A DNA stretch of 64,000 nucleotides. Source: Candidatus Omnitrophota bacterium. Lineage in GTDB: Bacteria; Omnitrophota; Gorgyraeia; Gygaellales; Profunditerraquicolaceae. Location: positions 5,052 through 69,051 of the forward strand of contig JAPLLR010000014.1 in the NCBI GenBank assembly GCA_026387455.1. Reading direction: 5' to 3'. Below the pieces are notes generated by a model. The model was not told the DNA's origin. It saw only the letters and a list, made by a program, of their open reading frames with translations, and searched no databases. A program made the translations under genes and the position numbers. Numbering within the stretch: the stretch's first letter is position 1; each line of letters opens with the position of its first letter. Below are positions 5,935 through 50,234 of the stretch, one piece after another.

Positions 5935-7230
5935 TTATCTAATCCACTTTTGCAATCTTTCTTTAGAGCGCTCCTTACCCAAGTGATAGATCACCTCGAA
6001 TAAGCCCGGACCGATGGTTTTGCCGGTCAAAGCCACTCTTATAGGATGGATCAACACCTTTGCCTCTAAACCCAGCTCCGCCATCATATCGCGGAAACAT
6101 TTCTCAATATTCTCGACAGTAAAATCCTGCAACGCGTCCAAACGCTGGACAAATAAAGCGAATTCTTTGGAGAAATCTTTGGAAAGACATTTGGCCTGCG
6201 CGACCGGGTCCATTTTTACTTCTTTCAGAAAGAAAAAATCCGCCCAGTCCACGAAATCATTGACATGCGCCAAACGGGGCTGGAATAATTTCACCAAAGA
6301 CAAAACATACCCGCGGTCAAAATTGTCTTTATCAATACACTTTGCCTCGATCAGCATCGGGATAATATCATCGGTCAGCTTTTCTGAATCAGCGCTCTTT
6401 AAATACTGATTATTCATCCAGTCTAGCTTCTTTAGGTCAAAAGTGGCTGCAGTTTTGTTTACGTCAGTGATATCGAATAGTTTGATCGCCTCATTGATAT
6501 CGATGACTTCCCGGTCTTCTCCCGGAGCCCAGCTTAAAAGCAACAGATAATTCACCAGCGCCTCAGGTAAATAGCCCATCTTACGATAATCCGAAATTGC
6601 AGTAGCCCCCGTCCTTTTGGACAGCCTTCCCCCCTCCATACCCATAATAAGTGGCAGGTGCGCAAAAGCCGGCAGAGGCAGGCCAAGTGCTTCATATAAA
6701 AGGATCTGCTTCGGAGTGTTAGAAATATGATCGTCGCCGCGGATAACGTGGGTAATATTCATCAGCGCATCATCCACTACACAGGCGAAATTATAGGTTG
6801 GAGTGCCGTCAGACTTCATCAATACCTGATCCTTGATATTCTCAGCGTCAAACTCAATATCCCCGCGAATCAGATCCTTAATCTTTATTTTCTGAGGCAT
6901 GACTTTAAAAATTATAGCCTCTCCCGGTTTATCCGGAAGCTTTTCGGTATAGGCCTTGCCTTCTTTTAATAGTTTCTGGGCATATTCGCGGTAGATATCA
7001 AAACGCTTGCTTTGATAGTATATCTCATCCCACTTAAACCCAAGCCAAGTAAGGCTGCCCAGGATCTCATCCACAAACTCTTTCTTTGAGCGCTCTTTAT
7101 CCGTATCTTCTATACGCAAAATGAACTTTCCGTCCTTGGCCCGAATGTAAAGCCAGTTAAAAAGCGCGGTGCGCCCACCTCCGATATGCAAATTTCCCGT
7201 AGGTGATGGGGCGAAGCGAACCCTGATCAT
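5935..7230 (-). CDS. gltX: glutamate--tRNA ligase
   Basis: The HIGG motif (NLHIGGGRTA), a KMSKS-like RLSKR motif and the class I fold layout are present. 431 aa. Confidence 0.85.
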   Translation of the reverse strand: MIRVRFAPSPTGNLHIGGGRTALFNWLYIRAKDGKFILRIEDTDKERSKKEFVDEILGSLTWLGFKWDEIYYQSKRFDIYREYAQKLLKEGKAYTEKLPDKPGEAIIFKVMPQKIKIKDLIRGDIEFDAENIKDQVLMKSDGTPTYNFACVVDDALMNITHVIRGDDHISNTPKQILLYEALGLPLPAFAHLPLIMGMEGGRLSKRTGATAISDYRKMGYLPEALVNYLLLLSWAPGEDREVIDINEAIKLFDITDVNKTAATFDLKKLDWMNNQYLKSADSEKLTDDIIPMLIEAKCIDKDNFDRGYVLSLVKLFQPRLAHVNDFVDWADFFFLKEVKMDPVAQAKCLSKDFSKEFALFVQRLDALQDFTVENIEKCFRDMMAELGLEAKVLIHPIRVALTGKTIGPGLFEVIYHLGKERSKERLQKWIR

Positions 7231-7757
7231 TTTAATTTTATCCCTTCCTCTAAAGCTTTTGTATTTATCTCAATAAGCTCTTTTTTGCCTTGCGGTGCCA
7301 TGTCTTCAAAGACCTTCAGCACTGTATTCGGGTTTACGATTTTTTTCTGGGCTAAATACGCGCCCAATGCCACCATGTTGGCTACTTTAATATTTCCGAG
7401 TTTGAGGGCGATATCGGTAAAAGCGTGGTGCAAAACTTTTAATTTGGCTTGCGCATACCGGGAAGCCAAAGAGCTATTGCTGATCAATAAGCCTTTAGCG
7501 CTAATGCGACTCTTGAAACGCTCCAGTGACGGAGCGTTCATGATTATCAATGTATCTGCAATATCAATAAAAGGAGAACCTATCTCGGTATCTGATATGA
7601 TTACCATACAATATGCAGTGCCTCCGCGCACCTCCGCCCCATAAGCGGGAAGCCAGGTGACAGACTTACTTTCACGCATCGCCGCATCGGCAAGCACCTT
7701 GCCTAAAAGCATTACGCCTTGACCACCAGCTCCGGAGATAATTATTTTCTCAGTCAT
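7227..7757 (-). CDS. 2-oxoacid:ferredoxin oxidoreductase, gamma subunit
   Basis: 176 aa. Its position and sequence are typical of the Por/Kor gamma subunit (GAGGQG motif). Confidence 0.75.
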   Translation of the reverse strand: MTEKIIISGAGGQGVMLLGKVLADAAMRESKSVTWLPAYGAEVRGGTAYCMVIISDTEIGSPFIDIADTLIIMNAPSLERFKSRISAKGLLISNSSLASRYAQAKLKVLHHAFTDIALKLGNIKVANMVALGAYLAQKKIVNPNTVLKVFEDMAPQGKKELIEINTKALEEGIKLK

Positions 7758-18976: not shown

Positions 18977-21016
18977 CTAGTCCTCAAAGTACTCCCGCAT
19001 CTTCCCGAATAATTCCCGATCACCAGGAAGCCGCTTACCTATAATATCCTCGACATCAATATCCGAAAAATCATCCCTATCCCCGGCGCTTTCTATTTCT
19101 ACCAGCTTTCCCAGAATATTCCCCTGCTCCAGAAAACGCGACACCTGAGTAAAGACATGTCCGCCGCCATCCATAAATGAGCGCGGAGAACGGTCAAGAT
19201 GCGGCTTAAGTAAAAACAGGTTTTCTTTTGCCCGGGTGGCTGCCACATAAAATAAACGGCGCTCTTCCTCTATATCTTCCTCACTCTCCAGCGATAAATA
19301 AGAAGGTAAGTGCCCTTCTGCCACATAAATCAGAAATACCGTATGCCACTCCAGGCCTTTTGCCGAGTGTATTGTGGAAAGGGTAAGGGTGGAATCATCC
19401 TGATCTTTTCTGCCTGCCTCAACCAACCCTCTTTCCGGAGGCTCCAAAGCCATGTCTGCCAAAAAATGCTCCAGAGAGTCATAGCGAGAAGCAATACCCA
19501 ACAGCGAATTCAAATCATTGATCCTTTTATGGAAATCGTCGTATTTTTCTTTTAACAACGGCTGATAGTACTGCAAGAACTTTTCTATTAAATCCGCAGG
19601 AGCAAAATCTTCCGGGTCGCTTTCCTTAAGCAAAGAAAAAAGTTTCTTTAGCTCCTCAGTTTTCTGTAATAATTTTTCATCTTTTGTCTCACCGTCATTG
19701 CCTTTAGCGATAGCGGCAATAATGCGCTCAGCGGTCTTTGGCCCGATCCCCGGCAACAAAAGTAAAGCCCTAAGCCAACTCACCTCGTCGTTATGGTTGT
19801 AGATGATGCGCAGATACGAAAGCATGTCCTTGATGTGCGCGGCTTCCACGAATTTCTGGCCACCATATTTGACAAAAGGAATATTACGGCTGGCTAACTC
19901 CACTTCCAGATCATTTGAATGCCATCCGGAGCGGAATAATACCGCTATATCGCATAACTCTACTCCTTCTTCCCGTAATTCCAGGATCTTGTCCGCGACA
20001 AATTTCGACTGGGCGTGATCATCCTGGGCATCCACAAAAACCGGCAACACTTTCCCGCCTTTTTTGGTGAAAAGGTTCTTTTCGAACTTTTCCTGCGCCG
20101 GACGGATCAAAGCATTAGCCAAATTTAGGATGGGCTGAGTCGAGCGGTAATTTTCTTCCAAAGTGATAATCCGGGAATCTTTAAATATATTGGGAAAATC
20201 GATGATATTCTTAAAATTCGCGCCGCGGAATGAATAAATACTCTGGGCATCATCACCCACCACCATGATATTTTTATGCTCCGACGCCAAAAGACAGGCA
20301 ATATAGGCCTGAAGCTTGTTAGTATCCTGATACTCGTCGATCATGATGTATTGATATTGCCGTGATAGCCGCACGCGCACGTCCTCGTGAATAAGTAGAA
20401 GCTGCTTTAAATAAACCAACAAGTCGTCATAATCAACCAAAGATTTTAACTGCTTGTATTTGACGTATTCATCGCGAATCTTTTTAATATCATCGGTGAA
20501 TTCCATAAAATGCGGATATTCATCGTAGATAACTTCCTCCAGCCCTTGAGATTTATTGATGCTTTTGGAAATGGTCTCTAGGATTGCTTTTTTGCGGGGA
20601 AAACGCTTCTCGGACTTATGAAATCCTAGCTGGGTGCGCACTAAATTCACCGTATCCTGAGCGTCGGATTCATCAAGGATGGTAAAGCTATTGGTTAGGT
20701 TGACTAATTTAGCGTACTTACGCAAGATAAAGTTGGCAAAAGAGTGAAATGTACCTCCGGAAACCCGGCTGCAACGGTCATCTAATAAAAGTGTGGCCCG
20801 ACGCAGCATCTCATCCGCTGCCCGGCGGGTAAAGGTGAGTAAAAGGATCTGCTCCGGCTTTACCCCCTGCTCGACAAGATAGGCCACCCGGTGCACCAGG
20901 ACCCGGGTCTTTCCGCTTCCCGCACCGGCAATAACCAAGTGCGGGCCGAGAGTAGATTGCACAGCATCCAATTGAGCGGGATTCAACTCGCTCTTATAGT
21001 TAATCTTGGCTTTCAT
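18977..21016 (-). CDS. uvrD: UvrD/PcrA/Rep-family ATP-dependent DNA helicase
   Basis: Walker A (AGAGSGKT), DExx (IMIDEYQD) and the helicase superfamily 1 motifs are present. 679 aa. Confidence 0.85.
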   Translation of the reverse strand: MKAKINYKSELNPAQLDAVQSTLGPHLVIAGAGSGKTRVLVHRVAYLVEQGVKPEQILLLTFTRRAADEMLRRATLLLDDRCSRVSGGTFHSFANFILRKYAKLVNLTNSFTILDESDAQDTVNLVRTQLGFHKSEKRFPRKKAILETISKSINKSQGLEEVIYDEYPHFMEFTDDIKKIRDEYVKYKQLKSLVDYDDLLVYLKQLLLIHEDVRVRLSRQYQYIMIDEYQDTNKLQAYIACLLASEHKNIMVVGDDAQSIYSFRGANFKNIIDFPNIFKDSRIITLEENYRSTQPILNLANALIRPAQEKFEKNLFTKKGGKVLPVFVDAQDDHAQSKFVADKILELREEGVELCDIAVLFRSGWHSNDLEVELASRNIPFVKYGGQKFVEAAHIKDMLSYLRIIYNHNDEVSWLRALLLLPGIGPKTAERIIAAIAKGNDGETKDEKLLQKTEELKKLFSLLKESDPEDFAPADLIEKFLQYYQPLLKEKYDDFHKRINDLNSLLGIASRYDSLEHFLADMALEPPERGLVEAGRKDQDDSTLTLSTIHSAKGLEWHTVFLIYVAEGHLPSYLSLESEEDIEEERRLFYVAATRAKENLFLLKPHLDRSPRSFMDGGGHVFTQVSRFLEQGNILGKLVEIESAGDRDDFSDIDVEDIIGKRLPGDRELFGKMREYFED

Positions 21017-21039
21017 CTTAAAAAATCCGGAAAATCTGA

Positions 21040-21582
21040 TTAAGGCGTGGTTTTTACGTAAGCCTTGATGATCTTTTGCTCAGCTAGCGGGCGGTCTTGC
21101 GAATCAGTGGCGGTATTTTCAATCTTCTCTACGATGTCATAGCCTGTTATGACCTCGCCGAAGATAGTGTGGCGCATATTTAACCAGGGAGTTTTGGCAA
21201 CAGTAATAAAAAACTGGCTGCCGTTGGTGTTGGGGCCGGAATTAGCCATGGCCAAAAGTCCCGGCTTATCAAAAGCGACATCCGCTTTCACCTCATCGCC
21301 GAAAGGCTTGCCCCAAATAGAAGTCCCACCGCGGCCGGTGCCAGTAGGGTCTCCGCCCTGAAGCATAAAACCCTTGATCGCCCGGTGAAAGATCAACCCG
21401 TTATAATAACCTTTCTCGACGAGCTTGGTGAAATTCTCACATGCCTTGGGTGCCACAGAAGGTATTAATTTTATCTCAATCTTTCCCTGTGTCGTTTCTA
21501 AAACTACAACTGTATTTTCCATGGCAATTACCCCCCTCACAGATAAAATCATCAGCACAAAAGCGATTAAAATATTTTTCAT
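21040..21582 (-). CDS. secreted cyclophilin-type peptidyl-prolyl cis-trans isomerase
   Basis: It has a signal peptide and the cyclophilin core (HRAIKGFMLQGGDPTGTGRGG). Confidence 0.85.
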   Translation of the reverse strand: MKNILIAFVLMILSVRGVIAMENTVVVLETTQGKIEIKLIPSVAPKACENFTKLVEKGYYNGLIFHRAIKGFMLQGGDPTGTGRGGTSIWGKPFGDEVKADVAFDKPGLLAMANSGPNTNGSQFFITVAKTPWLNMRHTIFGEVITGYDIVEKIENTATDSQDRPLAEQKIIKAYVKTTP

Positions 21583-21597
21583 GGATATTATACCCCT

Positions 21598-24500
21598 TTA
21601 TTCTCTTTTTTGGGCTTTTTGTTTTTCTTCCACCACTTTCAGCGCAATCTCCTGCGGAACTTGCAAGTATTTTGAGAATTCCATCGAAGCATTTGCCCGA
21701 CCGCTGGAAAGGGAACGAAAAGCCGTAGCATAACCGAACATTTCAGATAGCGGGACTTCTGCCTGGATAACCTTTTGTTTTCCTTTTACTTCGATATTCA
21801 GAATTTTGCCGCGGTGGGAACAGATATACCCCACGCAACCGCTAACGTACTCTTCGAGAGTGGCTACTTCTAGCGACATATACGGCTCAAGCAGAATGGG
21901 GTTAGCCTTCATAAAGATATCTTTAAATCCAAGGATCGCCGCCATGCGAAAGGCGATTTCCGAGGAGTCCACTTCATGATATGAGCCGTCTATCAGGCTC
22001 ACCTTTACATCTACCACCGGATACCCGGCATAAACTCCTTTTTGCATGGCCTCGATCACGCCCTTTTCCACCGCCGGGATAAATGAACGCGGTATCGCCC
22101 CGCCCTTTATACTATCGATAAATTCAAACCCCTTACCAGCCTCATTAGGTGAAAGTTCCATCACCACATGGCCGTATTGTCCGCGGCCGCCGGACTGCTT
22201 GATATACTTACTTTCTCCCTCAGCAGTTTGCAATATGGTCTCGCGGTATGCCACCTTGGGTTGCCCTACAATCGCCTCTACCCCGAATTCCTCTTTTAAT
22301 CTATCCACAATGATTTCCAGGTGCAGCTCGCCCATGCCGGTAAGAATGACCTCTTTAGTTTCTTCGTCAGTCTGCACAAAGAATGTAGGATCCTCTTCAG
22401 TCAGCTTATTTAAACCCTTGCCTAATTTTTCCTGGTCCCCTCGGGACTTAGGCGCGATACTCAAAGAAACAACCGGCGTGGGGAATTGAATAGCTTCCAA
22501 CAACACCGGTTTAAGCGGATCGCAAAGCGTATCTCCGGTCACCGTGTCCCCGAATCCCGGTATAGCTACGATATCTCCGGCAAAAGCATGGTCGATATTT
22601 TCTCTCAAGTTAGCGTGCATCTGCACGATCCTGCCCACGCGCTCTCTTTTATTCTTGGTAGAATTCAAAATATAAGAACCCGTTGAGACGCATCCGGAAT
22701 AAACCCGCACGTATACCAGCTTACCCATGTGAGGATCTGCCTGCACTTTAAAGGCGAGCCCTGAGAAAGGCTCGAAGACGTTTGCCTGGCGGGGGATCAC
22801 CTGATCCGCATGGTCCGGGTCATGCCCCTCTACCGGAGGAAGATCCAGTGGCGATGGCAGAAACATGTTCACCGCATCCAGCAATTTCTGCACACCTTTA
22901 TTCTTAAACGCCGCTCCGCACAATACCGGCACCGCCTTGTTGGCGATCGTGCCCCGCCGAATCGCGCCTATCAGCTCTTCGGGAGTGACCGGCGCCTGTT
23001 CCAGATACTTCTTCATCAGCATATCGTCAAAAGCTACGGCTTTTTCTACCAGTATCCTGCGGTGATGCTGGGCCTGCTCAAAATATTCCGCGGGGATCTC
23101 TTCAATACGGAAATCTTTTCCCTGCGTCTCTTCGTCATAAATATAAGCTTTCATCTCAATGAGGTCGATCACCCCTTGAAAATTATCTTCCGCGCCTATC
23201 GGGATTTCTATAGGCAAAACATTTCCGCCCAGATCACTTTCAATCCCTTTTAAAACCGCGAAGAAATCAGCGCCCGTGCGATCCATCTTATTCACGAAGG
23301 CCAGTTTCGGCACCCCGTATTTATCCGACTGATGCCAGACTGTCTCTGACTGCGGTTCCACTCCTCCTACCGCGCAAAAAACCGCGACTGCTCCGTCTAA
23401 GACTCTCAGCGACCGCTCTACCTCAGCGGTAAAATCCACGTGCCCAGGAGTATCGATGATATTGATGCGGTGATCTTTCCAGAAACATGTAGTGGCTGCG
23501 GCAGTAATAGTGATGCCGCGCTCCCTCTCCTGCTTCATCCAGTCCATCTGCGCACCGCCGTCATGCACCTCGCCGATCTTATGGGATTTTCCGGTGTAGA
23601 AAAGTATGCGTTCGCTTAACGTGGTCTTTCCGGCATCAATATGAGCCATGATCCCGATATTGCGGGTCTTAGCCAGATCGTAACGCGGAACAGGCCTGGA
23701 CTCTTCTTTTTTTTCTGCCACCGGCTCTGCGATAACTATTTCCTGCGGAACTAGTTCTTCTGGTGCAGGCGCTGCTTCTTCCGGTGTGATCGGCTCTGGT
23801 AACTGCTCTTCTGTTACAAAAGGCTCTGCCGCAGGCAATTCTTGCTCTAGAGACGGCTCTATTGTCTCAGACGGGGCAGGCGCTGCTTCTAGAGGTACGA
23901 GTTCTTGCGGTACAGGCTCTTGCACAGGCGCTTCTATGGCGTGACTAGGCTTTTGGGTGAGCTGATTATTAAGGTGTAAGATTTCATCAGTCAGCGTCTT
24001 AATCCTTGAATCCTTTTCATCCAGATCTTTTTCCAATTCGGTGAATTCTTCATTAAGCTGGTTGAACTCAAGCTTAGGCACCCATTCGCTTTCCTTTTCT
24101 TTCTTTTTATACTGAGCGATGGCTGACTGATGTTCGCTTATGTCTTTTATGTGACGCTCTATCTGATGTTTTTTTATCTCAATATCTTCAGACTGGCTCT
24201 TGATCTGGGAATCCAATGTCCCAATCTTTTCATTTAATTCCCTCAAGCCCTTATTAAAGTCCACTCCTTTAGTAAACTCTTCCTGCAGCTCCTTTTCCTT
24301 TTCCGCATACTTCCGGCGCAGGACAAGATTCTCATCTTTTACCTTATTAAGCATCTCCTCGGAGGTCTTAACCCAGTCATCCCTGCGCTTTAATTCCTCT
24401 TCCAGCTGCCCGGCCTTAGCCTTGATAGGCTCCAACTCCCGCTGGCCGGCCTCATGCTTTGCCTGCAGGATCTGCAGTTCATTCTCGAGAGAGTTAACAC

Positions 24501-24681
24501 GCTCCTGAAGTTTTTGGATTCTTTGCTCCTGAAAAGATGTGGTAATTTCTCTGGGGGGAAGTGCTGATTTGCGGCTGGGGCGGGCGTTATGACGGGACGC
24601 TGATGATGAAAAAGCGCCATACACGCCATAAGCTATCAAGCCGCCTCCGGCCAAACCCATGATCCAAAAAAATAATTCCAT
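21598..24681 (-). CDS. EF-G-family translational GTPase paralogue with a roughly 335-aa N-terminal TM, coiled-coil and Pro/Glu-rich extension
   Basis: It is a continuous 1027-aa ORF. Residues from about 340 onward form a full EF-G ([22 protein letters not shown], domains II-V). The N-terminus has a hydrophobic helix, about 230 aa of heptad-like sequence and a PEPxPxE-rich linker. Confidence 0.75.
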
Positions 24682-24689
24682 AAATTAGT

Positions 24690-25082
24690 TTAGTAAGGAA
24701 TAAAATCTACATGCGCTGTATTTGTTCTGCTACGGGTATCCTCTGACATTTTTGCATGGAGGCGCTTAATCAGATAAGTAACCGCATCTTTATTGGTATC
24801 GACAAATTCTACTCCCATGCGGTAAAATGGCGAGCGCTCTGAAACTGGCTCAGCCACATAACGAACCTTGCCTTTGCCACTTATGGGCCGATCAAGCTGC
24901 TGGGCAGTAAGCTCAAAATCCACCAGGCTTTCCGGCATAAACTTCTGGGTGGAATACATCCCAAACCCAACATAACTTATGTTTTCCAAGAAAGCCCTAC
25001 TCTCAAGAGGCTGACCGTTTTCGCTTTTGATCTGCACGTTTCCGTCAAGCCTTAAGCGGTCGAAATGGCGTTTTTCCGGCAT
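24690..25082 (-). CDS. PilZ-domain protein (c-di-GMP receptor-like)
   Basis: The RxxxR motif (RHFDR) and the (D/N)xSxxG motif (NISYVG) are present. It ends 8 nt upstream of the EF-G paralogue. Confidence 0.7.
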   Translation of the reverse strand: MPEKRHFDRLRLDGNVQIKSENGQPLESRAFLENISYVGFGMYSTQKFMPESLVDFELTAQQLDRPISGKGKVRYVAEPVSERSPFYRMGVEFVDTNKDAVTYLIKRLHAKMSEDTRSRTNTAHVDFIPY

Positions 25083-25141
25083 GTGTCCTCCTCCCGCAGA
25101 AAGCGGGACACCGGCCTTTCCTATAAGGCCGGGTGTACTAA

Positions 25142-25597
25142 TTATTTCGCCGCCAACATGGCGTCGATAATATTTTGCGAAACGCCTTGCTGTTTTAAAT
25201 AATCAATATCCGCCGGCGTAAGGTTGAATTTGGAATTTGTCAGACTGATCTTGTCGATGATTACTACCTCGTTTACCCCCTGCTTGGTCATATCCACGAT
25301 CTGCTGCAAAGAAAGTTGGTTTGCACTGGATGCGGCTTGGCCCGCAGAATCCTGTCCGGATTTATTTTTATTCATCTGCCCACCGATTAATGCACCACCT
25401 AGTGCGCCTGCCACCGCGCCTATTGCCGCTCCCTCTGCGCCGTGATGACCGGTAGCCGTGCCAATGCCATAGCCCGCGCCTGCGCCCAATATCCCACCAA
25501 TCACTCCTCCTTCAACCGCGCGAGTCTGGGTATTCTGGCAGCCTGTAGTCAGTAACAGCAACACCGAGCATATGACAATTGAAGTTAGTCTCTTCAT
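25142..25597 (-). CDS. glycine-zipper lipoprotein of the 17-kDa surface antigen/YMGG type
   Basis: It has an LTTGC lipobox and a long GxxxG(A) glycine-zipper tract. Confidence 0.7.
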   Translation of the reverse strand: MKRLTSIVICSVLLLLTTGCQNTQTRAVEGGVIGGILGAGAGYGIGTATGHHGAEGAAIGAVAGALGGALIGGQMNKNKSGQDSAGQAASSANQLSLQQIVDMTKQGVNEVVIIDKISLTNSKFNLTPADIDYLKQQGVSQNIIDAMLAAK

Positions 25598-26910
25598 TTC
25601 TGCTCTCCTTTTTTCAAACTCTCGAGCCTCTGTTTAATCTTCGCCTCATGCCCCATCTCCGTCGGCTCGTAATATTTCACTTTGCTGCGCGTATATTTCT
25701 GATCCACGTAGTGGCCGGCGAAATCATGCGCATATTTGTACCCTTTACCATGCCCCAATGCATCACCATCAGCAGTAGTGTCCTTAAGATGGTCCGGCAC
25801 TTCTTGCACCTTCTTATTTTCGATATCCGAGAGGGCTTTGTCAATGGCTAAATAACTAGCGTTTGACTTAGGCGCGCAGGAAACGTAAATGCAGGCCTGG
25901 GCCAAAGGTATGCGCGCCTCCGGCATTCCTACAAACTCCGAGACCTGCAAAGCGGCGTTAGCCAATACTAAAGCCAGAGGATCTGCATTTCCCACATCCT
26001 CGGCAGCCAGGATGCAGATTCTTCGGGCGATAAAACGGGGATCTTCCCCGGCATAAAGCATCTTGGCCATCCAATAGACTGCGGCATCGGGATCAGATCC
26101 GCGCATGGACTTGATAAAAGCCGAAGCAGTATCATAATGCTGATCTTCATCATGGTCATAAACCACAGCTTTCTTCTGTATAGATTCCTCAGCCACCTCC
26201 AAACTAAAATCAACTGCACCGTCTTTAGACTTTGGTGTGGTCAAAACCCCAACCTCTAAAGCACTCAACGCCCGTCGGGCGTCCCCCTCGCAGACTTTAC
26301 TTAAGAAATTCAAAGCCTTTTTATCGATCTTAATTTTTAGGTTTCCCAGTCCGCGCTCTTTATTTTTTATTGCGGAGTTGAGAATCTGGGCGATCTCGTC
26401 TTCCTTAAGGGCTTTTAATTCACAGACCACCGAACGCGAGACTAACGGCGCGATAATGGAGAAATAAGGATTATGCACGGTTGCCCCGATCAAAATCGGG
26501 TTACCTTCCTCAATATCCGGCAAGAGCACATCCTGCTGCGCCTTGTTAAAACGATGGATTTCGTCGATAAAGAGTATGGTCTTGATTCCTGTAGAGCGCA
26601 AGCGCTGCTTGGCGGTATTTATCGCCCGGCGAAGCTCTTCGACATTAGAGGTGGTAGCGTTTATAGCAATATAGTGGGATTTTGTAACGGAAGCGATACA
26701 CCAGGCAAGAGAGGTCTTGCCGCAACCCGGAGGGCCGAAAAGGATAAGCGAGCTCAAGCGATCTGCTTCTATCGCCCGGCGCAGCAGTTTTCCAATTCCC
26801 AAGATATGTTCCTGGCCGACGAATTCATCCAATACCTGTGGCCGCATGCGTACAGACAATGGCACGTCAATGGACGCGGCCTTCTTTTCCTCAAATAGTT
26901 CTATGGGCAT
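25594..26910 (-). CDS. rarA: replication-associated recombination protein A (AAA+ ATPase)
   Basis: Walker A (GPPGCGKTSLA) and the MgsA/RarA C-terminal domains are present. 438 aa. Confidence 0.9.
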   Translation of the reverse strand: MPIELFEEKKAASIDVPLSVRMRPQVLDEFVGQEHILGIGKLLRRAIEADRLSSLILFGPPGCGKTSLAWCIASVTKSHYIAINATTSNVEELRRAINTAKQRLRSTGIKTILFIDEIHRFNKAQQDVLLPDIEEGNPILIGATVHNPYFSIIAPLVSRSVVCELKALKEDEIAQILNSAIKNKERGLGNLKIKIDKKALNFLSKVCEGDARRALSALEVGVLTTPKSKDGAVDFSLEVAEESIQKKAVVYDHDEDQHYDTASAFIKSMRGSDPDAAVYWMAKMLYAGEDPRFIARRICILAAEDVGNADPLALVLANAALQVSEFVGMPEARIPLAQACIYVSCAPKSNASYLAIDKALSDIENKKVQEVPDHLKDTTADGDALGHGKGYKYAHDFAGHYVDQKYTRSKVKYYEPTEMGHEAKIKQRLESLKKGEQK

Positions 26911-26964
26911 AGAATGAAAGCGGTTTCTTTTGTCTGTTTAAAATAACCCCCTTAACCGGGGGAC

Positions 26965-27296: not shown

Positions 27297-29321
27297 CTAG
27301 CGTATCTTGGCCCCAAAGCTCTCTGTCAACATCCGAACCACTTCGCTATGTACCGGATTGACTTCTGCCTCCGTCAATGTGCGCTCATCCGAGCGATAAA
27401 TGCAGCTTATCGTAAGGCTACGCAACCCCGCGGATATCTGCTTACCTTTATAGTAATCCGCGATCCTAACCTCTATTAATAGCGGAGTTCCTTTTTCGTA
27501 AAGGCGGGACAAAACGCTTTTTATTGCCAAGTCCTCTTTTAAAACCAAGCTGATGTCGCGGGTTATCCCCGGATACCTAGGAGGTGAAACAAACTTCTTA
27601 TTTAAATCCGCAGCCGCGAACACTTTCTCTAAAGATACCTCGGCGCAAAACAAATCTTTGTTCTTGATGTCAACTCTTGCCAATGCACTTTTTTCAAGGT
27701 TAATCAAGCTTCCTGCTTTCTGGCCCCCAACCGTAACTTCTATTACTCCGGAGCCAGAGGGATTAAAATCATATTCCTTTATCCCAAGTTTTAAAAATAA
27801 CCTTTCCAAAACGCCTTTGATCTCCAAGAGCGACGCATTTTCTTTTGCCAATCCCTGTTCAAGGAAAAACGATTTTTCCCCGCATATAACAATGCCTAAA
27901 GTCAGCTCTTCTTCCGGGAAATTTTCCCCCCTGGAAAACACATTGGCTATTTCATAAAGAAAGACAAACTCCTGCTTTTGATTCAGGTTATATGAAACAC
28001 AGCGCGCCAAACTCGGGATAAGCGTGGTGCGCAACACCTCCTGCTCTTTGCTTAAGGGATTCATGATGGCTACCGGCTGCGCATCTTGGAGACCAAACCC
28101 CTTTGACAGGTCCTGATCCACCAGGCTGTAGGTAATCGCTTCACTTAAACCCAGCCCAGTGAGGACTTTCTTTGTAAGAGCGACTAAATCCCTTGAGCCA
28201 CGGATACTTACCTGAGGTTTTATCGATGGCAAAGTCTGCGGGATATTCTCAAATCCGTAAATCCTGGAGATCTCTTCGATCAAGTCTTCAGGAAGCTCCA
28301 CATCTTCCCTAAACAATGGCACAGTCACCATCATTTTATTTTTCCCTACAGACCTCACTCTAAAACCCAAGTGGCCAAGGATATTCTTTAATTTCTGCTC
28401 GGCAATCTTAACATTTAAAATCTTTTCCACTAGCCCCAGATCTAAACTTATGCTTTTAGTTTTGGGCAAGGCTTTCCCTGAGCTTTTAGCCAAAACGCAT
28501 TTTCCCGAGGACAATTCTTCGATCAAACCGGATGCCTGGCATGCAGAAAATTCCGCAGTCTCAAAATCCACTCCTCGCTCAAAGCGATATGAAGAATCAG
28601 TAGATAACCCTAATTTCTGCCTTCCCCGCCGCACCACCGAGCCGTTAAATACCGCTGCTTCCAATAAAATATTTTTGGTATGCTCAGTGACTTCGGTGTC
28701 TTTTCCCCCCATCACCCCGGCCACTGCCACAGGCTTAACAGGATCCGCAATGATCAAGATATCTGCATCAAGCTTACGCTCTACCTGGTCAATAGTGACT
28801 AATTTCTCACTGTTCTTTGCCCGGCGGACAATGATCTCTGCGCCACTTAGCTTATCCAGATCAAAAGCATGCAACGGCTCTCCCCAGGTAAACAGGCAAT
28901 AATTAGTGATGTCCACTACGTTATTGATGCTGCGGCAACCGATAAGCTCAAGTCGCTCTTTTAGCCATTTTGGCGATGGACCGACTTTTACCTCACGAAT
29001 GATCTTCGCGCTATAAAGCGGGCAATCGGATTTATCTTCGACTTTGATTGCAAACTTACCAACCGCCTTGGCGCACCGGCACTTTGACGATTTAGCCGAT
29101 TTTAATTTTACTCCGGTGATCGCCGCTACTTCTCTGGCGATACCGATGACGCTTAGCCAGTCCGGCCGGTTGGAAGTAATCTCCGCCTCAAAGACAAAAT
29201 CACCACCCTTACCTTCCACACCGCTGACCTCTAATCCAGCCATGGTAAGCTTTTCAGCCAACGCCTCAGGTGCAATCTTAATGTCTACGAAATCTTTTAA
29301 CCAGTTGTAAGTAAATTTCAT
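27297..29321 (-). CDS. pheT: phenylalanine--tRNA ligase beta subunit
   Basis: The N-terminus is MKFTYNWLKDF. B3/B4, B5, tRNA synthetase-like and FDX-ACB domains are present in order. It is short at 674 aa. Confidence 0.85.
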   Translation of the reverse strand: MKFTYNWLKDFVDIKIAPEALAEKLTMAGLEVSGVEGKGGDFVFEAEITSNRPDWLSVIGIAREVAAITGVKLKSAKSSKCRCAKAVGKFAIKVEDKSDCPLYSAKIIREVKVGPSPKWLKERLELIGCRSINNVVDITNYCLFTWGEPLHAFDLDKLSGAEIIVRRAKNSEKLVTIDQVERKLDADILIIADPVKPVAVAGVMGGKDTEVTEHTKNILLEAAVFNGSVVRRGRQKLGLSTDSSYRFERGVDFETAEFSACQASGLIEELSSGKCVLAKSSGKALPKTKSISLDLGLVEKILNVKIAEQKLKNILGHLGFRVRSVGKNKMMVTVPLFREDVELPEDLIEEISRIYGFENIPQTLPSIKPQVSIRGSRDLVALTKKVLTGLGLSEAITYSLVDQDLSKGFGLQDAQPVAIMNPLSKEQEVLRTTLIPSLARCVSYNLNQKQEFVFLYEIANVFSRGENFPEEELTLGIVICGEKSFFLEQGLAKENASLLEIKGVLERLFLKLGIKEYDFNPSGSGVIEVTVGGQKAGSLINLEKSALARVDIKNKDLFCAEVSLEKVFAAADLNKKFVSPPRYPGITRDISLVLKEDLAIKSVLSRLYEKGTPLLIEVRIADYYKGKQISAGLRSLTISCIYRSDERTLTEAEVNPVHSEVVRMLTESFGAKIR

Positions 29322-42367: not shown

Positions 42368-43915
42368 CTACCTTGCGCGCATGATTTTAAATTGATAGGC
42401 CATCATCAGCGTACTGTTCACTACCCAGTACAACACCAGGCCAGCCGGCAAATGATAGAAAAATACCAAAAACATTATCGGCATAGCTATCATCATAATC
42501 TTCTGCTGCTGAGCAGTGCTGGAATCGCTACACTGTTTCACAGTGGACATTTTTTGCTGTAGAAACATTCCTATGGTCATCAATATCGGCAGTATATTAA
42601 TTTCATTTCCCAAAACAGGAATTGACTGCGGCAATTTAAACAGGCAATCCGGCATAGATAGATCCTTGATCCAAAGGAACTCAGCACCCCGTAAAGCTAC
42701 CGAACGCATCAGCACCTGATATAATGCAAACAATATGGGCATCTGCAAAAGCATGGGTAAGCAACCGCCCAAAGGATTAACTTTATGCTCCTTATAAAGC
42801 GCCAAGGTTTCCTGGTTCAGCTTTTGAGGATTATCTTTATACTTCTTGCGCAACTCCTCTATCTTTGGTTGCAGAATTTGCATCTCTTTCATAGAGCGCA
42901 TTTGTTTAAGAGTAAGCGGAAAGAGCACCAGAAAAACCAGTACGCTAAGAAGTATAATCGCCCAACCCCAGTTACCCACCAAACGCTGGACAAACTCTAA
43001 ACTCTTAAGGATTGCTTGGCCAAAGAAATCAAATATTCCGTAATTTATTACTGCACCCCAATCCCGATTTACACCGTTAATAACCTGCAACTGTTGTGGG
43101 CCCAAATAGATATGAAATTTAAGCTTAAGTGGAAGCCCGGGCGCTGCGATTAGATCTTTTAAAGTCAAACCAACCTCAGACTCTTGTGCGCTAAGCTTAC
43201 GCACATAGGCTCCGGTGTTACCGTCAACCCTCTCTATAATAGCGCAGAAATACCGGTCGCGCACTGCCAAAAACTTTACCTTATCCCAAGACATTTCCTT
43301 TTTGCCGTTTTCTTGCAGCACTTTCTCATTCGTCGCAGCTGTAACATTCAAATAAGTAGTATCAATAGATTTTGGAGTAAAATCTAAAACCCCCAAAATC
43401 AAAGGCAGGTCCAGCTTAATAGGGGCTCCAGAATTATTCTGAACTTCAATCTCTAAATCTATAGTATAATTAGAGTTAGAAAAGATATACTTCTTAGTGA
43501 TCAGTAGTTCTCTGTCCTTGTGAATAAAAGTCGCGGTGTTAGCAGTAAAAAGCTCTTTTCTAAAAGCCCCCTTGCCAACCAAAGCAAATGCCGACTTTAA
43601 ATTATATTTATAATCTTGAAAAACTTTGAAATTAACATCTTTTATGGCCGATAATTCTTCAATAAAATCTACATCAAATTTTTCCTGGGGAAAATTAATC
43701 AGGGTGGAGGGAGCAGATTGGACAGGTGCCGAGGTTCCCGCAGGCACTTGCGCAGGTGCTTCTGCAACTATGGTTCTTACGGCCTCGCTGCCTCCAGCAG
43801 CAATATTTGCTACAACCTGTTGGCTCACAGGCTTTTGCGTCTTAGATACCAATGTGCCCCAACCAACTAAAACCGCTAAAGATAAAACTACTGCTAAAAA
43901 TAAACGTTTTTCCAT
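42368..43915 (-). CDS. yidC: membrane protein insertase YidC
   Basis: 515 aa with an N-terminal TM helix, a periplasmic domain and the conserved C-terminal five-TM core. Confidence 0.9.
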   Translation of the reverse strand: MEKRLFLAVVLSLAVLVGWGTLVSKTQKPVSQQVVANIAAGGSEAVRTIVAEAPAQVPAGTSAPVQSAPSTLINFPQEKFDVDFIEELSAIKDVNFKVFQDYKYNLKSAFALVGKGAFRKELFTANTATFIHKDRELLITKKYIFSNSNYTIDLEIEVQNNSGAPIKLDLPLILGVLDFTPKSIDTTYLNVTAATNEKVLQENGKKEMSWDKVKFLAVRDRYFCAIIERVDGNTGAYVRKLSAQESEVGLTLKDLIAAPGLPLKLKFHIYLGPQQLQVINGVNRDWGAVINYGIFDFFGQAILKSLEFVQRLVGNWGWAIILLSVLVFLVLFPLTLKQMRSMKEMQILQPKIEELRKKYKDNPQKLNQETLALYKEHKVNPLGGCLPMLLQMPILFALYQVLMRSVALRGAEFLWIKDLSMPDCLFKLPQSIPVLGNEINILPILMTIGMFLQQKMSTVKQCSDSSTAQQQKIMMIAMPIMFLVFFYHLPAGLVLYWVVNSTLMMAYQFKIMRAR

Positions 43916-43918
43916 AGG

Positions 43919-44134
43919 TTAATTTACCGGGTCAAACCCGGTTCTTCCCGAATAGGGATGGCAATGCATCAGCCTGACAAAAGCCTTAAAACCACCCCTG
44001 TAAAAGCCGTATTTTGAGATAGCTTGCAAAGCGAACTCAGAACAGGAGGGATTAAACCGGCAGGCGACCGGCATCATATGCCTGATCGACCCCTGATACA
44101 CGCGGATCAATAAAATGGAGAGTTTCGCCAGCAT
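43919..44134 (-). CDS. yidD: membrane protein insertion efficiency factor YidD
   Basis: 71 aa (YQ..IS....CRF.P.CS.Y). Confidence 0.85.
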   Translation of the reverse strand: MLAKLSILLIRVYQGSIRHMMPVACRFNPSCSEFALQAISKYGFYRGGFKAFVRLMHCHPYSGRTGFDPVN

Positions 44135-44271
44135 CAGCGAGAGATTCTTTTACGGCCTTTTTGACGGCGGCGCCTCAAAACTTCCCTACCGAGACGACTT
44201 TTCATACGCTTGCGAAACCCATGCTTACGCTTACCGACAATATTTGTCGGCGTCTTTAAATTTTTCTTCAT
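44134..44271 (-). CDS. rpmH: 50S ribosomal protein L34
   Basis: Hand translation gives MKKNLKTPTNIVGKRKHGFRKRMKSRLGREVLRRRRQKGRKRISR. Its stop TGA overlaps the yidD ATG as TGATG. It is absent from the ORF track because it is under 60 aa. Confidence 0.85.
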   Translation of the reverse strand: MKKNLKTPTNIVGKRKHGFRKRMKSRLGREVLRRRRQKGRKRISR

Positions 44272-44384
44272 GCTTTTGCTTTCTGCCTGCCGAAAACAGG
44301 CGTAATAGTGTAAAAACCCGCCGGAAAGACTTTCCCGACGGGAAAATGGGCGTCTTGCCCTTTACAAATTCCAAAAGTTTATTG

Positions 44385-44412
44385 ATTATAACATAACGTC
44401 GCACGATGTCAA
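44385..44412 (-). promoter_or_regulatory. sigma70-type promoter for rpmH
   Basis: On the minus strand, TTGACA is followed by a 16-nt spacer and then TATAAT. Confidence 0.55.
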
Positions 44413-44460
44413 CACTTACGTGCGTAAATAAATCCAAACTTCGGCGAGTAAAAATTTTTG

Positions 44461-44488
44461 TTGACCTACTACAGGTTTGATGTATAAT
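44461..44488 (+). promoter_or_regulatory. sigma70-type promoter for dnaA
   Basis: TTGACC is followed by a 16-nt spacer and then TATAAT. Confidence 0.55.
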
Positions 44489-44589
44489 GCCAAGGCTTAA
44501 GCATACAATTGTTACCGCCTTCTATAAATTTTATCTTGCTCTTAGTTATGTTTTGTGTTAACGTAGTAACAATAATTTAACCCTTTTGA

Positions 44590-44631
44590 TTTTCCACAGA
44601 GTTATTCAAGATGTGGATAAGTTGTGGATAG
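44590..44631. promoter_or_regulatory. cluster of DnaA boxes at the dnaA start, in the oriC/dnaA control region
   Basis: The boxes are TTTTCCACA, TGTGGATAA and TGTGGATAG. The coding strand switches here. Confidence 0.6.
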
Positions 44632-44638
44632 CCCGAAC

Positions 44639-45979
44639 ATGCCTGAAACCATCAAGACCTGGCAACTAGCGCAGGCCTGCCTTAAAGATAAATTAGGAAC
44701 AACGGTTTTTGATACCTGGATTGCGCCCCTCAAGGCGAAATCCGTGGCCCAGAACTCTCTTACCTTGGAAGCGCCCGATACTTTTTTTAAAGACTGGGTG
44801 GAAAAACACTACCGCCCGGCAATAGAAGAAAGCCTTGGTAGTTGCGGGGCAAAGAAAAAAATCACCCTGACCCTGGAAATCGGCTCTCCGGAAAAAATCA
44901 CTCCCGAAAAAATCTCTATTTCCGCTAGCCCGGCTAAAACTCATGAGAGCTTTGGGTATTTAAAATTAAACCCACGCTATACTTTTGAAAATTTCGTAGT
45001 CGGGCCATCGAACCGCCACGCCCACGCTTATTGCCTGGCCACCGCGGAGTCTCCGGCCAAAGCTTATAACCCTTTATTTATTTACGGCTCAACCGGCCTT
45101 GGCAAAACTCACCTGATCCAATCAGTCTGCCATCATATCAAAAATAAAGTGGGCGGGAATTTAAAAATCTGCTATCAGCCTTCAGAAAAATTCACTAACG
45201 AGCTTATTGACGCTATCCAACACCATTCAACCGCGGCCTTCCGCCAGAAATACCGCAACCTCGATGTGCTGGTTTTAGACGATATACATTTTATCGCCGG
45301 TAAGAATTCCTCACAGGAGGAGTTTTTCCACACCTTCAACACCCTTTACGACGCGCACAAGCAGATAATTCTTTCCTCCGACCGGCCACCCAAAGAAATC
45401 GCCGATCTACAAGAACGCCTGGTTTCCCGCTTCGGGTGGGGATTAGCTGTGGATGTCCAGCCGCCGGACCTTGAAACGAGGGTAGCGATCCTGAAAAAAA
45501 AGATTGAGCGGGAGCCGGTCAGTGTACCAGACGATGTGATATTTTTTATCGCCGGGTTAATCTTGACTAATATCCGAGACCTAGAAGGCGCACTGGTCAG
45601 AGTTATGGCCTACTCTTTAATGGAAGAAAAACCCATCACTTTAGATTTAGCTAAAGAAGCACTAAAAGATTTATTGAAAGAAACTAAAAAATTTATCACT
45701 GTGGATTTCATCCAACGCTGTGTTGCGGAAGAATTCGGGATATCTTTACACGACCTAAAAGCCCGGCGCAGGAATAAAAATATTGTGCTTCCCCGCCAAA
45801 TCGCCATGTATTTGAGCCGGGAAATGACGGATCTTTCCCTACCCGAGATAGGGAATTATTTCGGCGGTAAGGATCATACCACGGTTTTATACTCTTATAC
45901 TAAGATAAAAGGTGAGTTGATTAAAAACGGAACGCTTAAAGAACGTATGGAAGGAATACGACAGATTATTAAACAGTAA
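44639..45979 (+). CDS. dnaA: chromosomal replication initiator DnaA
   Basis: The AAA+ Walker A (GSTGLGKTHL) and the domain IV HTH are present. The ORF track gives 44624 with a GTG, but the ATG at 44639 (MPETIKTW) is preferred. Confidence 0.9.
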   Translation: MPETIKTWQLAQACLKDKLGTTVFDTWIAPLKAKSVAQNSLTLEAPDTFFKDWVEKHYRPAIEESLGSCGAKKKITLTLEIGSPEKITPEKISISASPAKTHESFGYLKLNPRYTFENFVVGPSNRHAHAYCLATAESPAKAYNPLFIYGSTGLGKTHLIQSVCHHIKNKVGGNLKICYQPSEKFTNELIDAIQHHSTAAFRQKYRNLDVLVLDDIHFIAGKNSSQEEFFHTFNTLYDAHKQIILSSDRPPKEIADLQERLVSRFGWGLAVDVQPPDLETRVAILKKKIEREPVSVPDDVIFFIAGLILTNIRDLEGALVRVMAYSLMEEKPITLDLAKEALKDLLKETKKFITVDFIQRCVAEEFGISLHDLKARRRNKNIVLPRQIAMYLSREMTDLSLPEIGNYFGGKDHTTVLYSYTKIKGELIKNGTLKERMEGIRQIIKQ

Positions 45980-46118
45980 TCCAAAGGTTACTTAAAGGTT
46001 ATTTTTTAGTTAAGTATAGTGAATTTATTCAAGTTATAAAGTTTTTAACAGAACTGTAACCTAATTACTACTATTACGATTTAAGTATCTTTATACTAAA
46101 TAGAAGGAGAAAGAAAAG

Positions 46119-47210
46119 ATGAAATTTAATGTAAAAAAAGATGTTTTATTAAATGGGATTCAGACTGTACAAAACGTAATCACCACAAAATCCGCGTTAC
46201 CCATACTTTCCCATATACTTATAGAAACCTATCAAGATAAGCTAAAATTGACCGCTACGGATTTAGATATAGGGATAAGTTGTGTAATACCTGTGAATGT
46301 CCAAGAACCTGGAGCGATTACAATTCCGGCAAAAAGATTTAATGATATTATTAGAGAGTTACCGGGGGATCAAGTAAATATAACTACTAAAAAGAATAAT
46401 CTAGTGACCATAGAGACAGAGAGTTGCCAGTTTAAGATTATGGGTTTGGCGCGGGAGGAGTTTCCTAAATTACCAGAGTTTAAAGATAAAGAAGTGGTGG
46501 TGATGGGGCAGGATGTTTTAAAAGAAATGTTGGTTTTAACTTCTTTTGCCGCATCATTTGATGAAACACGGTATATTTTAAACGGTATATTATTTAGAAT
46601 TAATAAAAATGTTTTGACTCTAGTGGCTACTGACGGAAAGCGTTTGGCAGTTATAGATAGAAAAATCAGCCAGGGTATTGATAAGGACATAAGCTTAATT
46701 GTTCCTATAAAAACTATTCATGAGTTAGGTAGGAATCTGACCGAGGATGGGGACATATCTATTGTCTTAGGGGCGAATCAAGTGTTATTTGAAATGGGCG
46801 AGATTGTGGTGATTTCCCGCTTGATTGAAGGAGAATTTCCAGATTATAAACAGGTTGTTCCCGCGGCTTCAGAAAATAAGGTAAAGGTTGACCGCACGCA
46901 GTTTTTATTGGCGGTAAAACGTGCGGCATTATTATCTACCCCGGATTATCAGGCAGTAAAATTCGAGGTCTTTAAGAACAAGTTGGTGGTTTCCAAATCC
47001 ACTCCGGACATTGGAGAATCACATGAAGAGGTGGCTATAGAATATTCTGGTAAAGAAATGGTGATTGGCTTTAACCCTGGTTACCTGGTCGATGTTTTGA
47101 AAAACTTGGCGCTTGATACGGTAGAGCTTGAACTTACTGATGGGGAGAAGCCTGGGGTGATACGCAGCAATGGGTATGTGTATGTTGTGTTGCCTATGCG
47201 ACTTGGATAA
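46119..47210 (+). CDS. dnaN: DNA polymerase III beta sliding clamp
   Basis: 363 aa in three domains, in the canonical position after dnaA. Confidence 0.9.
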   Translation: MKFNVKKDVLLNGIQTVQNVITTKSALPILSHILIETYQDKLKLTATDLDIGISCVIPVNVQEPGAITIPAKRFNDIIRELPGDQVNITTKKNNLVTIETESCQFKIMGLAREEFPKLPEFKDKEVVVMGQDVLKEMLVLTSFAASFDETRYILNGILFRINKNVLTLVATDGKRLAVIDRKISQGIDKDISLIVPIKTIHELGRNLTEDGDISIVLGANQVLFEMGEIVVISRLIEGEFPDYKQVVPAASENKVKVDRTQFLLAVKRAALLSTPDYQAVKFEVFKNKLVVSKSTPDIGESHEEVAIEYSGKEMVIGFNPGYLVDVLKNLALDTVELELTDGEKPGVIRSNGYVYVVLPMRLG

Positions 47211-47326
47211 GTGAGTGTACAATTTATGGAACAAAGTGAACATAAATTGTTTGCACGAACTTACCCCGAAGGCTACGAGAAAATTTTGAAGAAATTTTCG
47301 AAGTGTTTAGCCTACGGGGTTGAATA

Positions 47327-47614
47327 ATGGAACGGATCAAGGATACTCTTCAGAGCGTTTTTAAGGAATTGGTTGCCAAAAAAGACTCTCCGGGAGGCAA
47401 TACTCCTGAGGATTGGTTAAAAAAAGCCTTGACAAAGAGAGAGCTTGAGCATATAAAGTTTAATTATTTCCGTAAAGGTATCCTCGGGGTCAAGGTGGAT
47501 TCCTCAAGCTGGGTTTACAAGTTCACTTTGGATAAGGCCAAGATACTTGCTAAGCTGCAAAAGTGCTCAGCCGAAGTTAAGGATATTCATTTTCGTATCG
47601 GAGAAGTGACATAA
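47327..47614 (+). CDS. DUF721-type small protein, probably DciA-like, lying between dnaN and gyrB
   Basis: A 95-aa basic protein in the slot usually occupied by recF or DUF721. The family is assigned from context and length. Confidence 0.5.
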   Translation: MERIKDTLQSVFKELVAKKDSPGGNTPEDWLKKALTKRELEHIKFNYFRKGILGVKVDSSSWVYKFTLDKAKILAKLQKCSAEVKDIHFRIGEVT

Positions 47615-50233
<2,619 letters not shown>

Positions 50234-50234
50234 T

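Follow-up and report, generated by a model that had tools for sequence, protein, structure and literature searches.

Elongation factor G (EF-G) is, in the textbook view, a freely diffusing translation factor. Here we analysed a gene on the reverse strand of a 64,000-nucleotide stretch of a Candidatus Omnitrophota genome (contig JAPLLR010000014.1 of assembly GCA_026387455.1, positions 5,052 to 69,051; hereafter the window), which encodes an EF-G of 1027 residues, termed long EF-G below. Its sequence and a structure model together identify it as a predicted single-pass membrane protein in N-out/C-in orientation, whose stalk, linker and complete canonical EF-G would all lie in the cytoplasm. An inspection of the letters alone (the sequence-only reading) had described a complete five-domain EF-G behind an N-terminal extension and had proposed a tether to the membrane through a hydrophobic helix, a coiled-coil stalk and a Pro/Glu-rich linker; this architecture is supported by the sequence analyses and the AlphaFold2 (AF2) model reported here. 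More than 110 protein clusters, essentially all from Omnitrophota, share it. Full-text literature searches brought up neither an account of an EF-G with a membrane anchor or an N-terminal extension nor anything on EF-G in Omnitrophota; databases label the long proteins merely 'elongation factor G'. An EF-G with an integral-membrane tether, present phylum-wide in Omnitrophota, thus appears to be undescribed, as the sequence-only reading had suspected. With a probability of roughly 0.55, we read it as a membrane-localised EF-G paralogue that may serve membrane-proximal ribosomes, spatially restricted and otherwise ordinary.

The AF2 model, a monomer computed from an alignment of 93 sequences (mean predicted local distance difference test (pLDDT) score 74.5), places a transmembrane (TM) helix, a disordered segment, two coiled-coil helices, a second disordered segment and the EF-G fold one after another, within the limits given in Table 1. 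The N-terminal hydrophobic helix, which reads [24 protein letters not shown], was present as proposed and is conserved, the hydrophobic 19-mer near the N-terminus having a mean Kyte-Doolittle value of 2.41 over the 93 homologues. A net positive charge precedes the helix in 0 of 93 homologues, and the 20 residues following it carry a charge of at least +2 in 76% of them; a cluster of Lys and Arg in this segment is conserved. This positive-inside pattern argues for an N-out/C-in topology with EF-G in the cytoplasm.

Heptad periodicity runs through the extension from about residue 45 to 243, in a single register from about 45 to 170 and with a shift near residue 200, in a region rich in Glu, Lys and Leu. 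The coiled coil claimed earlier therefore stands in kind and not in length: about 230 residues had been proposed, and the two modelled helices together span about 190. Helix 1 contains the conserved motifs EELKRRxxWV, SEEMLNKVK and [11 protein letters not shown], and helix 2 carries the signature SEWVPKxEFNxLNEE. Residues W103, W200, K203, F206, L209, N210, E212 and E233 are invariant among the 93 sequences, and about 30 further positions are at least 90% conserved; the extension is more than a generic coiled coil. A sequence search of the PDB with the extension returned generic coiled coils only (best E 0.11). The segment between the stalk and EF-G (residues 244-333) contains 23% Glu and 21% Pro, has a net charge of -16 and shows no heptad signal, in agreement with the Pro/Glu-rich linker of the sequence-only reading. 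Among homologues, the linker varies freely in sequence and ranges from 56 to 124 residues in length (median 89). Its junction with EF-G follows the conserved consensus P-x-P-[RK]-x-x-L-x-K-x-RNIGI, and P332 at this junction is kept in 92 of the 93 homologues.

The catalytic body is complete. All five Pfam domains score above their gathering thresholds (GTP_EFTU 338-609, EF-G_D2 638-721, EFG_III 733-806, EFG_IV 808-927 and EFG_C 930-1013). The motifs G1 to G5 (positions 346, 388, 410, 464 and 589) and the two domain IV tip loops (SGGRGQYGH and GSYHEVDSS, positions 830 and 899) are intact and invariant over the 93 homologues. The core passes TIGR00484, the equivalog model of canonical EF-G, with 1031 bits against a cut-off of 659.4, residues 334-1021 aligning with model positions 5-690 of 691. 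It fails both EF-G2 models (NF009377, 499.6 against 890; NF058620, 471.7 against 1000) and all models for tetracycline-protection proteins, RF3, TypA and LepA, falling far below the cut-offs of the last two. Solved structures of canonical EF-G match end to end (Thermus 854 bits, E. coli 845 and S. aureus 837), and mitochondrial EFG1 (565 bits), mtEFG2 (476) and Thermus EF-G-2 (1wdt; 415) score lower. By these matches the catalytic body is a conventional EFG-I, and its earlier assignment to an EF-G2-type paralogue has to be abandoned. Residues 336-1027 are alike end to end with the canonical protein (EFG I, fusA; Thermus thermophilus 1dar and E. coli 2rdo/4v7b, about 845-854 bits), which differs from long EF-G in having no 335-residue TM anchor, coiled coil and linker.

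In the classification of EF-G paralogues by Margus et al. (2011; PMC3150367), the classes EFG II, spdEFG1/spdEFG2 and mtEFG1/mtEFG2 show about 30-40% identity with indels or altered motifs, and extensions or TM segments are not mentioned. The three-residue 'KDG' insertion in switch I that marks spdEFG1 in the same study is absent from long EF-G, in which this segment reads [26 protein letters not shown]. Like the present case, those paralogues represent a duplicated EF-G that persists next to a second copy, with labour perhaps divided between the two, but they differ in the catalytic body and not by an anchor.

A homology search with long EF-G gave 120 clusters with identities of 62-89%. Almost all are about 1000-1060 residues long and have a query coverage of about 100%; the named ones are labelled 'elongation factor G [Candidatus Omnitrophica bacterium]'. 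No database record of an identical protein sequence was found. Further, one genome per species was scanned, which gave 239 related stretches, of which 79 loci were kept. Sixty-one of the 79 are titled Omnitrophota or Omnitrophica. The others come from third-party metagenome-assembled genomes (MAGs) under the titles Planctomycetales or Planctomycetia, except for one titled 'Deltaproteobacteria' and one titled 'bacterium'. The labels Planctomycetales, Planctomycetia and Deltaproteobacteria (loci L001, L002, L008, L012, L018, L019, L021, L028, L036, L048, L059, L061, L063, L065, L066, L072 and L076) are probably coarse or wrong, and some of these MAGs share the synteny of the window. Nearly all homologues start with a hydrophobic helix followed by a Lys/Arg cluster; the small remainder evidently reflects gene calls that begin at an internal Met. 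Database entries that start in this way include P0045, P0055, P0060 and P0108 (891-925 residues) and likewise P0002, P0013, P0052, P0104 and P0105, all of which thereby lack the TM helix or some of the stalk. Automated annotation thus under-reports the anchor. The conservation of the N-terminus, on which the sequence-only reading had made its claim depend, is evident from the query coverage and from the invariant residues of the extension.

Some Omnitrophota genomes encode a second, short EF-G. On the closed 1.52-Mb chromosome CP070797.1 (locus L050) and in CAZVRU01 (L059), it lies just upstream of the long one, in tandem. Short and long cores are 69-72% identical, compared with 76% between the short copies and 73% between the long copies of these two genomes. 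A search with the L050 short copy returned at least 120 clusters of about 698 residues at 76-85% identity, named Omnitrophota or Omnitrophica plus a few related candidate taxa; seeded in this way, the sample represents essentially the L050-like lineage. In a neighbour-joining tree of 307 cores, a short clade (119 tips) and a long clade (185 tips) separate with only two exceptions, L071 (a long gene mislabelled as short at a contig edge) and L063. In L063, the core of the long protein is of the short type and shares 82% identity with P0240, which is encoded on another contig of the same MAG, CAZAYU01 (L063 on CAZAYU010000001.1, 9806-12973; the short gene, L087, on CAZAYU010000007.1, 5091-7175). 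This identity, compared with about 70% in a typical pair, rises to 100% over a window of 80 residues, and suggests gene conversion between the paralogues. A windowed-identity scan for more such pairs was uninformative owing to the high conservation of the G domain. Another short copy, P0139, belongs to CAYVYJ01, which is also the source of the long locus L065. Both forms thus occur in 4 of 4 genomes in which the question could be answered (CP070797.1, CAZVRU01, CAZAYU01 and CAYVYJ01), and the short EF-Gs P0227 and P0186 belong to MAGs outside the list of long-EF-G loci.

Only 6 of about 690 aligned positions discriminate long from short cores, mean column conservation is 0.82 versus 0.84, and no clade-specific indels separate the two. 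By these measures, the long copy is neither relaxed nor visibly neofunctionalised in its catalytic body. The two cores, about 70% identical and both EFG-I-like, are in this respect unlike the EFG II, spdEFG and mtEFG pairs; the spdEFG pair is divergent, co-occurring and replaces EFG I, a definition that the Omnitrophota pair fails (PMC3150367). In phylogenomics, TIGR00484 serves as a single-copy marker, whereas two copies are present in at least some genomes of Omnitrophota. Genomic location does not help to classify either form. Long EF-G lies outside the str operon (rpsL-rpsG-fusA-tuf), with PilZ and rarA genes upstream and PPIase and uvrD genes downstream, and short Omnitrophota EF-Gs also lie outside it in every context seen (Fur-FeoAB-OsmC, NYN or SpoU-HD), so that str location is non-diagnostic in Omnitrophota.

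An internal translation start that would release a free EF-G from the long gene was considered and ruled out. None of the 93 homologues has a Met at the junction of linker and EF-G, and the conserved Pro there aligns with the initiator Met of the short form. The long gene therefore cannot also make free EF-G by internal initiation.

Based on this anatomy, we propose that the TM helix would fix long EF-G in the cytoplasmic membrane as a stable signal anchor. The rigid stalk, if fully helical, would extend about 22 nm over the 148-residue first helix and about 6 nm over the second, and the flexible acidic linker, probably extended, could add a contour of about 30 nm. Stalk and linker might then give the catalytic body access to a shell that reaches a few tens of nanometres below the membrane, a depth of the right order of magnitude for the factor-binding site of a translocon-docked ribosome. 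Within this shell, the anchored EF-G would drive GTP-dependent translocation of the ordinary kind, and probably also recycling, for ribosomes near the membrane, e.g., those engaged with SecYEG or YidC, and the soluble paralogue would serve the bulk cytoplasm. A core with 6 discriminating positions and intact domain IV loops has the pattern that would be expected of a working elongation factor.

PDB entries 4wpo, 4wqf and related structures hold what we take to be an engineered L9-EF-G chimera made for ribosome crystallography, in which an N-terminally fused EF-G binds the ribosome. By analogy, an N-terminal tether may be sterically compatible with function, although the chimera is artificial and has a ribosomal protein as its tether and a short linker. 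FtsY and LepA/EF4 are translation-related GTPases that act at the membrane, peripherally or via amphipathic helices. They share with long EF-G the idea of a membrane-acting GTPase and differ from it in family and in the peripheral nature of their association; to our knowledge, none of these or similar GTPases is an integral-membrane EF-G.

Several observations weigh against this proposal. No conserved Sec, YidC, FtsY or SRP (signal recognition particle) gene was found next to long EF-G, and the role is inferred from anatomy. The four double-copy genomes fall in or next to a basal long subclade of 9 members that appears when the tree is rooted between the paralogues, and not in the subclade of 177 members that contains the gene of the window, so that a division of labour between a soluble and an anchored copy is unproven for the genome of the window. 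The tree itself has short internal branches and carries no support values. Furthermore, the AF2 monomer leaves a dimeric stalk and a folded-back hairpin undistinguished.

A tentative and considerably less probable alternative is that the short gene was lost in the subclade of the window and that the anchored protein performs all translocation and recycling. No second EF-G occurs in the 64-kb window or within 10 kb on either side of the long gene at about 60 loci of this subclade, and no short-copy-type neighbourhood was found in the window. The core is conserved like that of a housekeeping EF-G, root-to-tip rates are equal (0.255 in the subclade of the window versus 0.246 in the subclade with both copies), and none of the short copies in the essentially L050-like sample traced to a MAG of the subclade in question. 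On the other hand, absence from an L050-seeded sample, even one of at least 120 matches, means little, and both copies are present wherever their presence could be determined. With the root between the paralogues, the duplication is older than the ancestor of every long form sampled, and the ancestors of the window's lineage would accordingly have had both copies. Inserting every EF-G molecule into the membrane would also be costly. We consider it doubtful that this subclade has lost its soluble fusA altogether, which would leave an integral-membrane EF-G as sole translocase and confine all translation to a sub-membrane shell.

The tether might instead hold a pool of EF-G in reserve, to be released or activated under certain conditions by proteolysis of the linker or by a signal through the stalk. 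We regard such a regulated reservoir as distinctly unlikely. A long, disordered linker of variable length between two conserved modules would suit it, as would stalk motifs that suggest partner binding. Nevertheless, no conserved protease or regulator gene was found nearby, the linker has no conserved cleavage motif besides the P-x-P-[RK] junction, and nothing separates this reading from a simple flexible tether.

The origin of the anchor could be traced further. An exhaustive profile search with the extension alone against 1.84 billion representatives yielded 348 matches with E <=1e-3, 63 of them with E <=1e-30. The top matches were fragments of long EF-G, and below them stood a coherent group of proteins of about 210-235 residues that match profile positions 1-222 end to end, each with an N-terminal TM helix, a basic cluster and a coiled coil. 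The motif WV[SAP]KxE[FY] lies at about residue 190-200 and is present in 30 of 34 stand-alone representatives of about 200-240 residues. In an alignment of 30 of them, W192 is invariant and W95 nearly so; these two Trp residues correspond to W200 and W103 of the extension, and the spacing is 97 in both. An hhalign comparison of the extension with the stand-alone family gave a probability of 99.9% (E 5.8e-33, 176 columns). This match and the Trp spacing indicate that the anchor-plus-stalk of long EF-G is homologous to the stand-alone family, and hence that the gene arose by fusion of this module with a duplicated fusA.

No Pfam family covers these TM/coiled-coil proteins, and the family is newly delineated here. 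Its members of about 225 residues (e.g., P0365, P0392 and P0395, with the JGI label 'chromosome segregation ATPase') have the TM helix, basic cluster, coil and Trp pair in common with long EF-G. They differ in ending about 25-30 residues past the motif, without linker and without EF-G, and in having a conserved neighbourhood of their own. Upstream of the stand-alone gene are SpoU, HD, PAS hybrid kinase, Hpt, a 332-residue hypothetical protein and a TPR protein; downstream follow either an aminotransferase and YchF or an ABC-F ATPase, and then REC, hydrolase, SpoU, RluB and ABC-F genes. In L083-L086 the gene occupies 7001-7708, always after the PAS hybrid histidine kinase, Hpt, the 332-residue hypothetical protein and a TPR protein of about 555 residues, and before translation-associated genes (YchF or ABC-F ATPase, SpoU methyltransferase and RluB).

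Several neighbours of the stand-alone family have homologues of 40-55% identity directly beside long EF-G; L013, for example, has the HD gene there, and L018, L023 and L057 have the hydrolase. One short EF-G directly follows SpoU-HD. These sequences are most simply explained by a history in which a duplicated fusA and a stand-alone gene for a membrane coiled-coil protein were close neighbours and fused, with the Pro/Glu linker as the joint. The invariant Trp motifs of the stalk would then probably serve oligomerisation or partner binding, a role inherited from the stand-alone protein. The fusion could also give a 'Rosetta stone' approach to the function of this unnamed membrane coiled-coil family.

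Two other kinds of membrane coiled-coil protein also matched the extension profile. Small open reading frames (ORFs) with a TM helix and a coiled coil lie 1-1.5 kb downstream of long EF-G in L012 (6437-6961) and L042 (14020-14907); they match the extension profile weakly (E about 1e-10) and have no Trp motifs. Five proteins of 490-720 residues (P0344, P0367, P0339, P0385 and P0315) combine an N-terminal TM helix, repeated coiled-coil units and MshEN, and all except P0315 end in a PilZ domain, which places two modules that bind cyclic di-GMP (c-di-GMP) on a membrane coiled-coil stalk. Homology of the long EF-G stalk to these proteins is unproven, as only the TM helix and a generic coil match and both Trp motifs are absent.

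The fusion raises the question of whether EF-G was co-opted as a GTPase module or ribosome-recruiting adaptor for the membrane process of the stand-alone protein (for instance in secretion, division or the envelope), instead of taking part in bulk elongation. In favour of this, the anchor module occurs on its own as a conserved protein that predates the fusion and has its own gene context (PAS hybrid kinase, Hpt, 332-residue hypothetical and TPR proteins), and its motifs have remained invariant since the fusion. Nevertheless, the core shows neither relaxation nor neofunctionalisation, with only those 6 positions setting it apart from the short form, and the translocation-specific loops of domain IV are intact. 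Such co-option seems slightly less credible still than a regulated reservoir.

The sequence-only reading had further suggested that long EF-G might be coupled to a c-di-GMP receptor encoded just upstream. The single-domain PilZ gene was found as described, its TAA stop lying 8 nt before the EF-G ATG. Its product carries the RxxxR and NxSxxG motifs as RHFDR and NISYVG and is predicted to bind c-di-GMP; the Gly-zipper lipoprotein gene noted nearby is also present (Table 1). The genes rarA, Gly-zipper, PilZ, EF-G, PPIase and uvrD form one run on the reverse strand (18977-26910), in which rarA and the Gly-zipper gene overlap by 4 nt and the following gaps measure 59 nt to PilZ, 8 to EF-G, 15 to PPIase and 23 to uvrD. 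A compact co-directional run of this kind is what a streamlined genome typically shows, and it counts as weak evidence of functional coupling. No recognisable Shine-Dalgarno sequence was seen in the 8 nt before the EF-G start (24682-24689), and the nearest terminator-like hairpin lies upstream of rarA, at about 26947-26962.

When the three genes on each side of long EF-G were clustered for 78 loci, RarA was found in 15, the Gly-zipper protein in 11 and the PilZ family in 5, and no neighbour was universal. A PilZ gene is the immediate upstream gene on the same strand in 4 of 71 informative loci (the window, L001, L002 and L014), and a Gly-zipper gene, distant family members included, lies upstream in 11 of the 71. 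We therefore find no support for the functional coupling of EF-G to PilZ. A c-di-GMP-controlled EF-G, in which the PilZ protein would bind the stalk or EF-G and link translation to c-di-GMP, could draw on the intact motifs, the close spacing and the recurrence of the pairing in three other loci, but all except one of the four loci belong to the query and its close relatives, and the surrounding array consists of unrelated housekeeping genes. In addition, the PilZ protein of the window has no BLAST similarity to the PilZ domains of the MshEN proteins, which do not carry the Trp signature of the stalk. We consider this control highly improbable. Finally, the mis-joined upstream ORF, frameshift or assembly chimera near 23.7 kb that the sequence-only reading had raised against itself deserves next to no weight, since every locus uncut by a contig end has a single open frame of more than 300 codons upstream of the P-loop, the same frame continues through more than 75 independent assemblies from many projects, a closed chromosome included, and the junction sequence is conserved.

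If the membrane-localised paralogue is real, a phylum-wide integral-membrane EF-G would offer a natural experiment on the spatial organisation of translation in bacteria. It would give a handle on dedicated factors for membrane-bound ribosomes and on the reach of a tethered GTPase, and may show how ultra-small cells arrange few ribosomes.

Table 1. Parts of the long EF-G gene and its upstream neighbours, in window coordinates (aa, amino-acid residues).
Feature	Position	Strand	Evidence
Membrane-anchored long EF-G (predicted), whole gene	21598..24681	-	ATG start, 1027 aa; ORF list and translation
TM helix (predicted N-out/C-in signal anchor), aa 2-25	24607..24678	-	AF2 helix, pLDDT 80-86; hydrophobic 19-mer conserved
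Juxtamembrane segment, basic, Ser/Pro-rich, predicted disordered, aa 26-49	24535..24606	-	pLDDT <50; net charge +3
Coiled-coil helix 1, aa 50-197, contains W103	24091..24534	-	AF2 single helix, pLDDT ~80-86
Helix break S198-E-W200-V-P202 and coiled-coil helix 2, aa 198-242	23956..24090	-	AF2 break 198-202, helix 203-242
Linker, acidic, Pro/Glu-rich, disordered, aa 243-335	23677..23955	-	pLDDT ~30-38; C-terminal P-x-P-[RK] junction
Canonical EF-G core, aa 336-1027	21598..23676	-	Pfam, NCBIfam and solved-structure matches
Single-domain PilZ protein, 130 aa, upstream neighbour	24690..25082	-	PF07238, 28.7 bits against a cut-off of 22.5
Probable Gly-zipper lipoprotein, 151 aa, upstream neighbour	25142..25597	-	PF13488, PF13441; LLTTGC lipoprotein-like signal

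The window holds other features of note. A chromosomal replication origin region spans 42368-52667, with yidC (42368..43915, reverse strand), dnaA (44624..45979, forward strand), dnaN, gyrB and gyrA; the cumulative GC skew reaches its minimum and gene orientation flips in this region, the skew switching near 45-46 kb. The PheT gene at 27297-29321 on the reverse strand encodes 674 residues that match the bacterial pheT model from position 160 on, and by this alignment its product appears to be without the usual N-terminal tRNA-binding domain. On the forward strand, an ORF of 1867 residues (55570-61173) has Pfam matches only to GNAT acetyltransferase domains, at about residues 1467-1752, and its first 1450 or so residues are unannotated.

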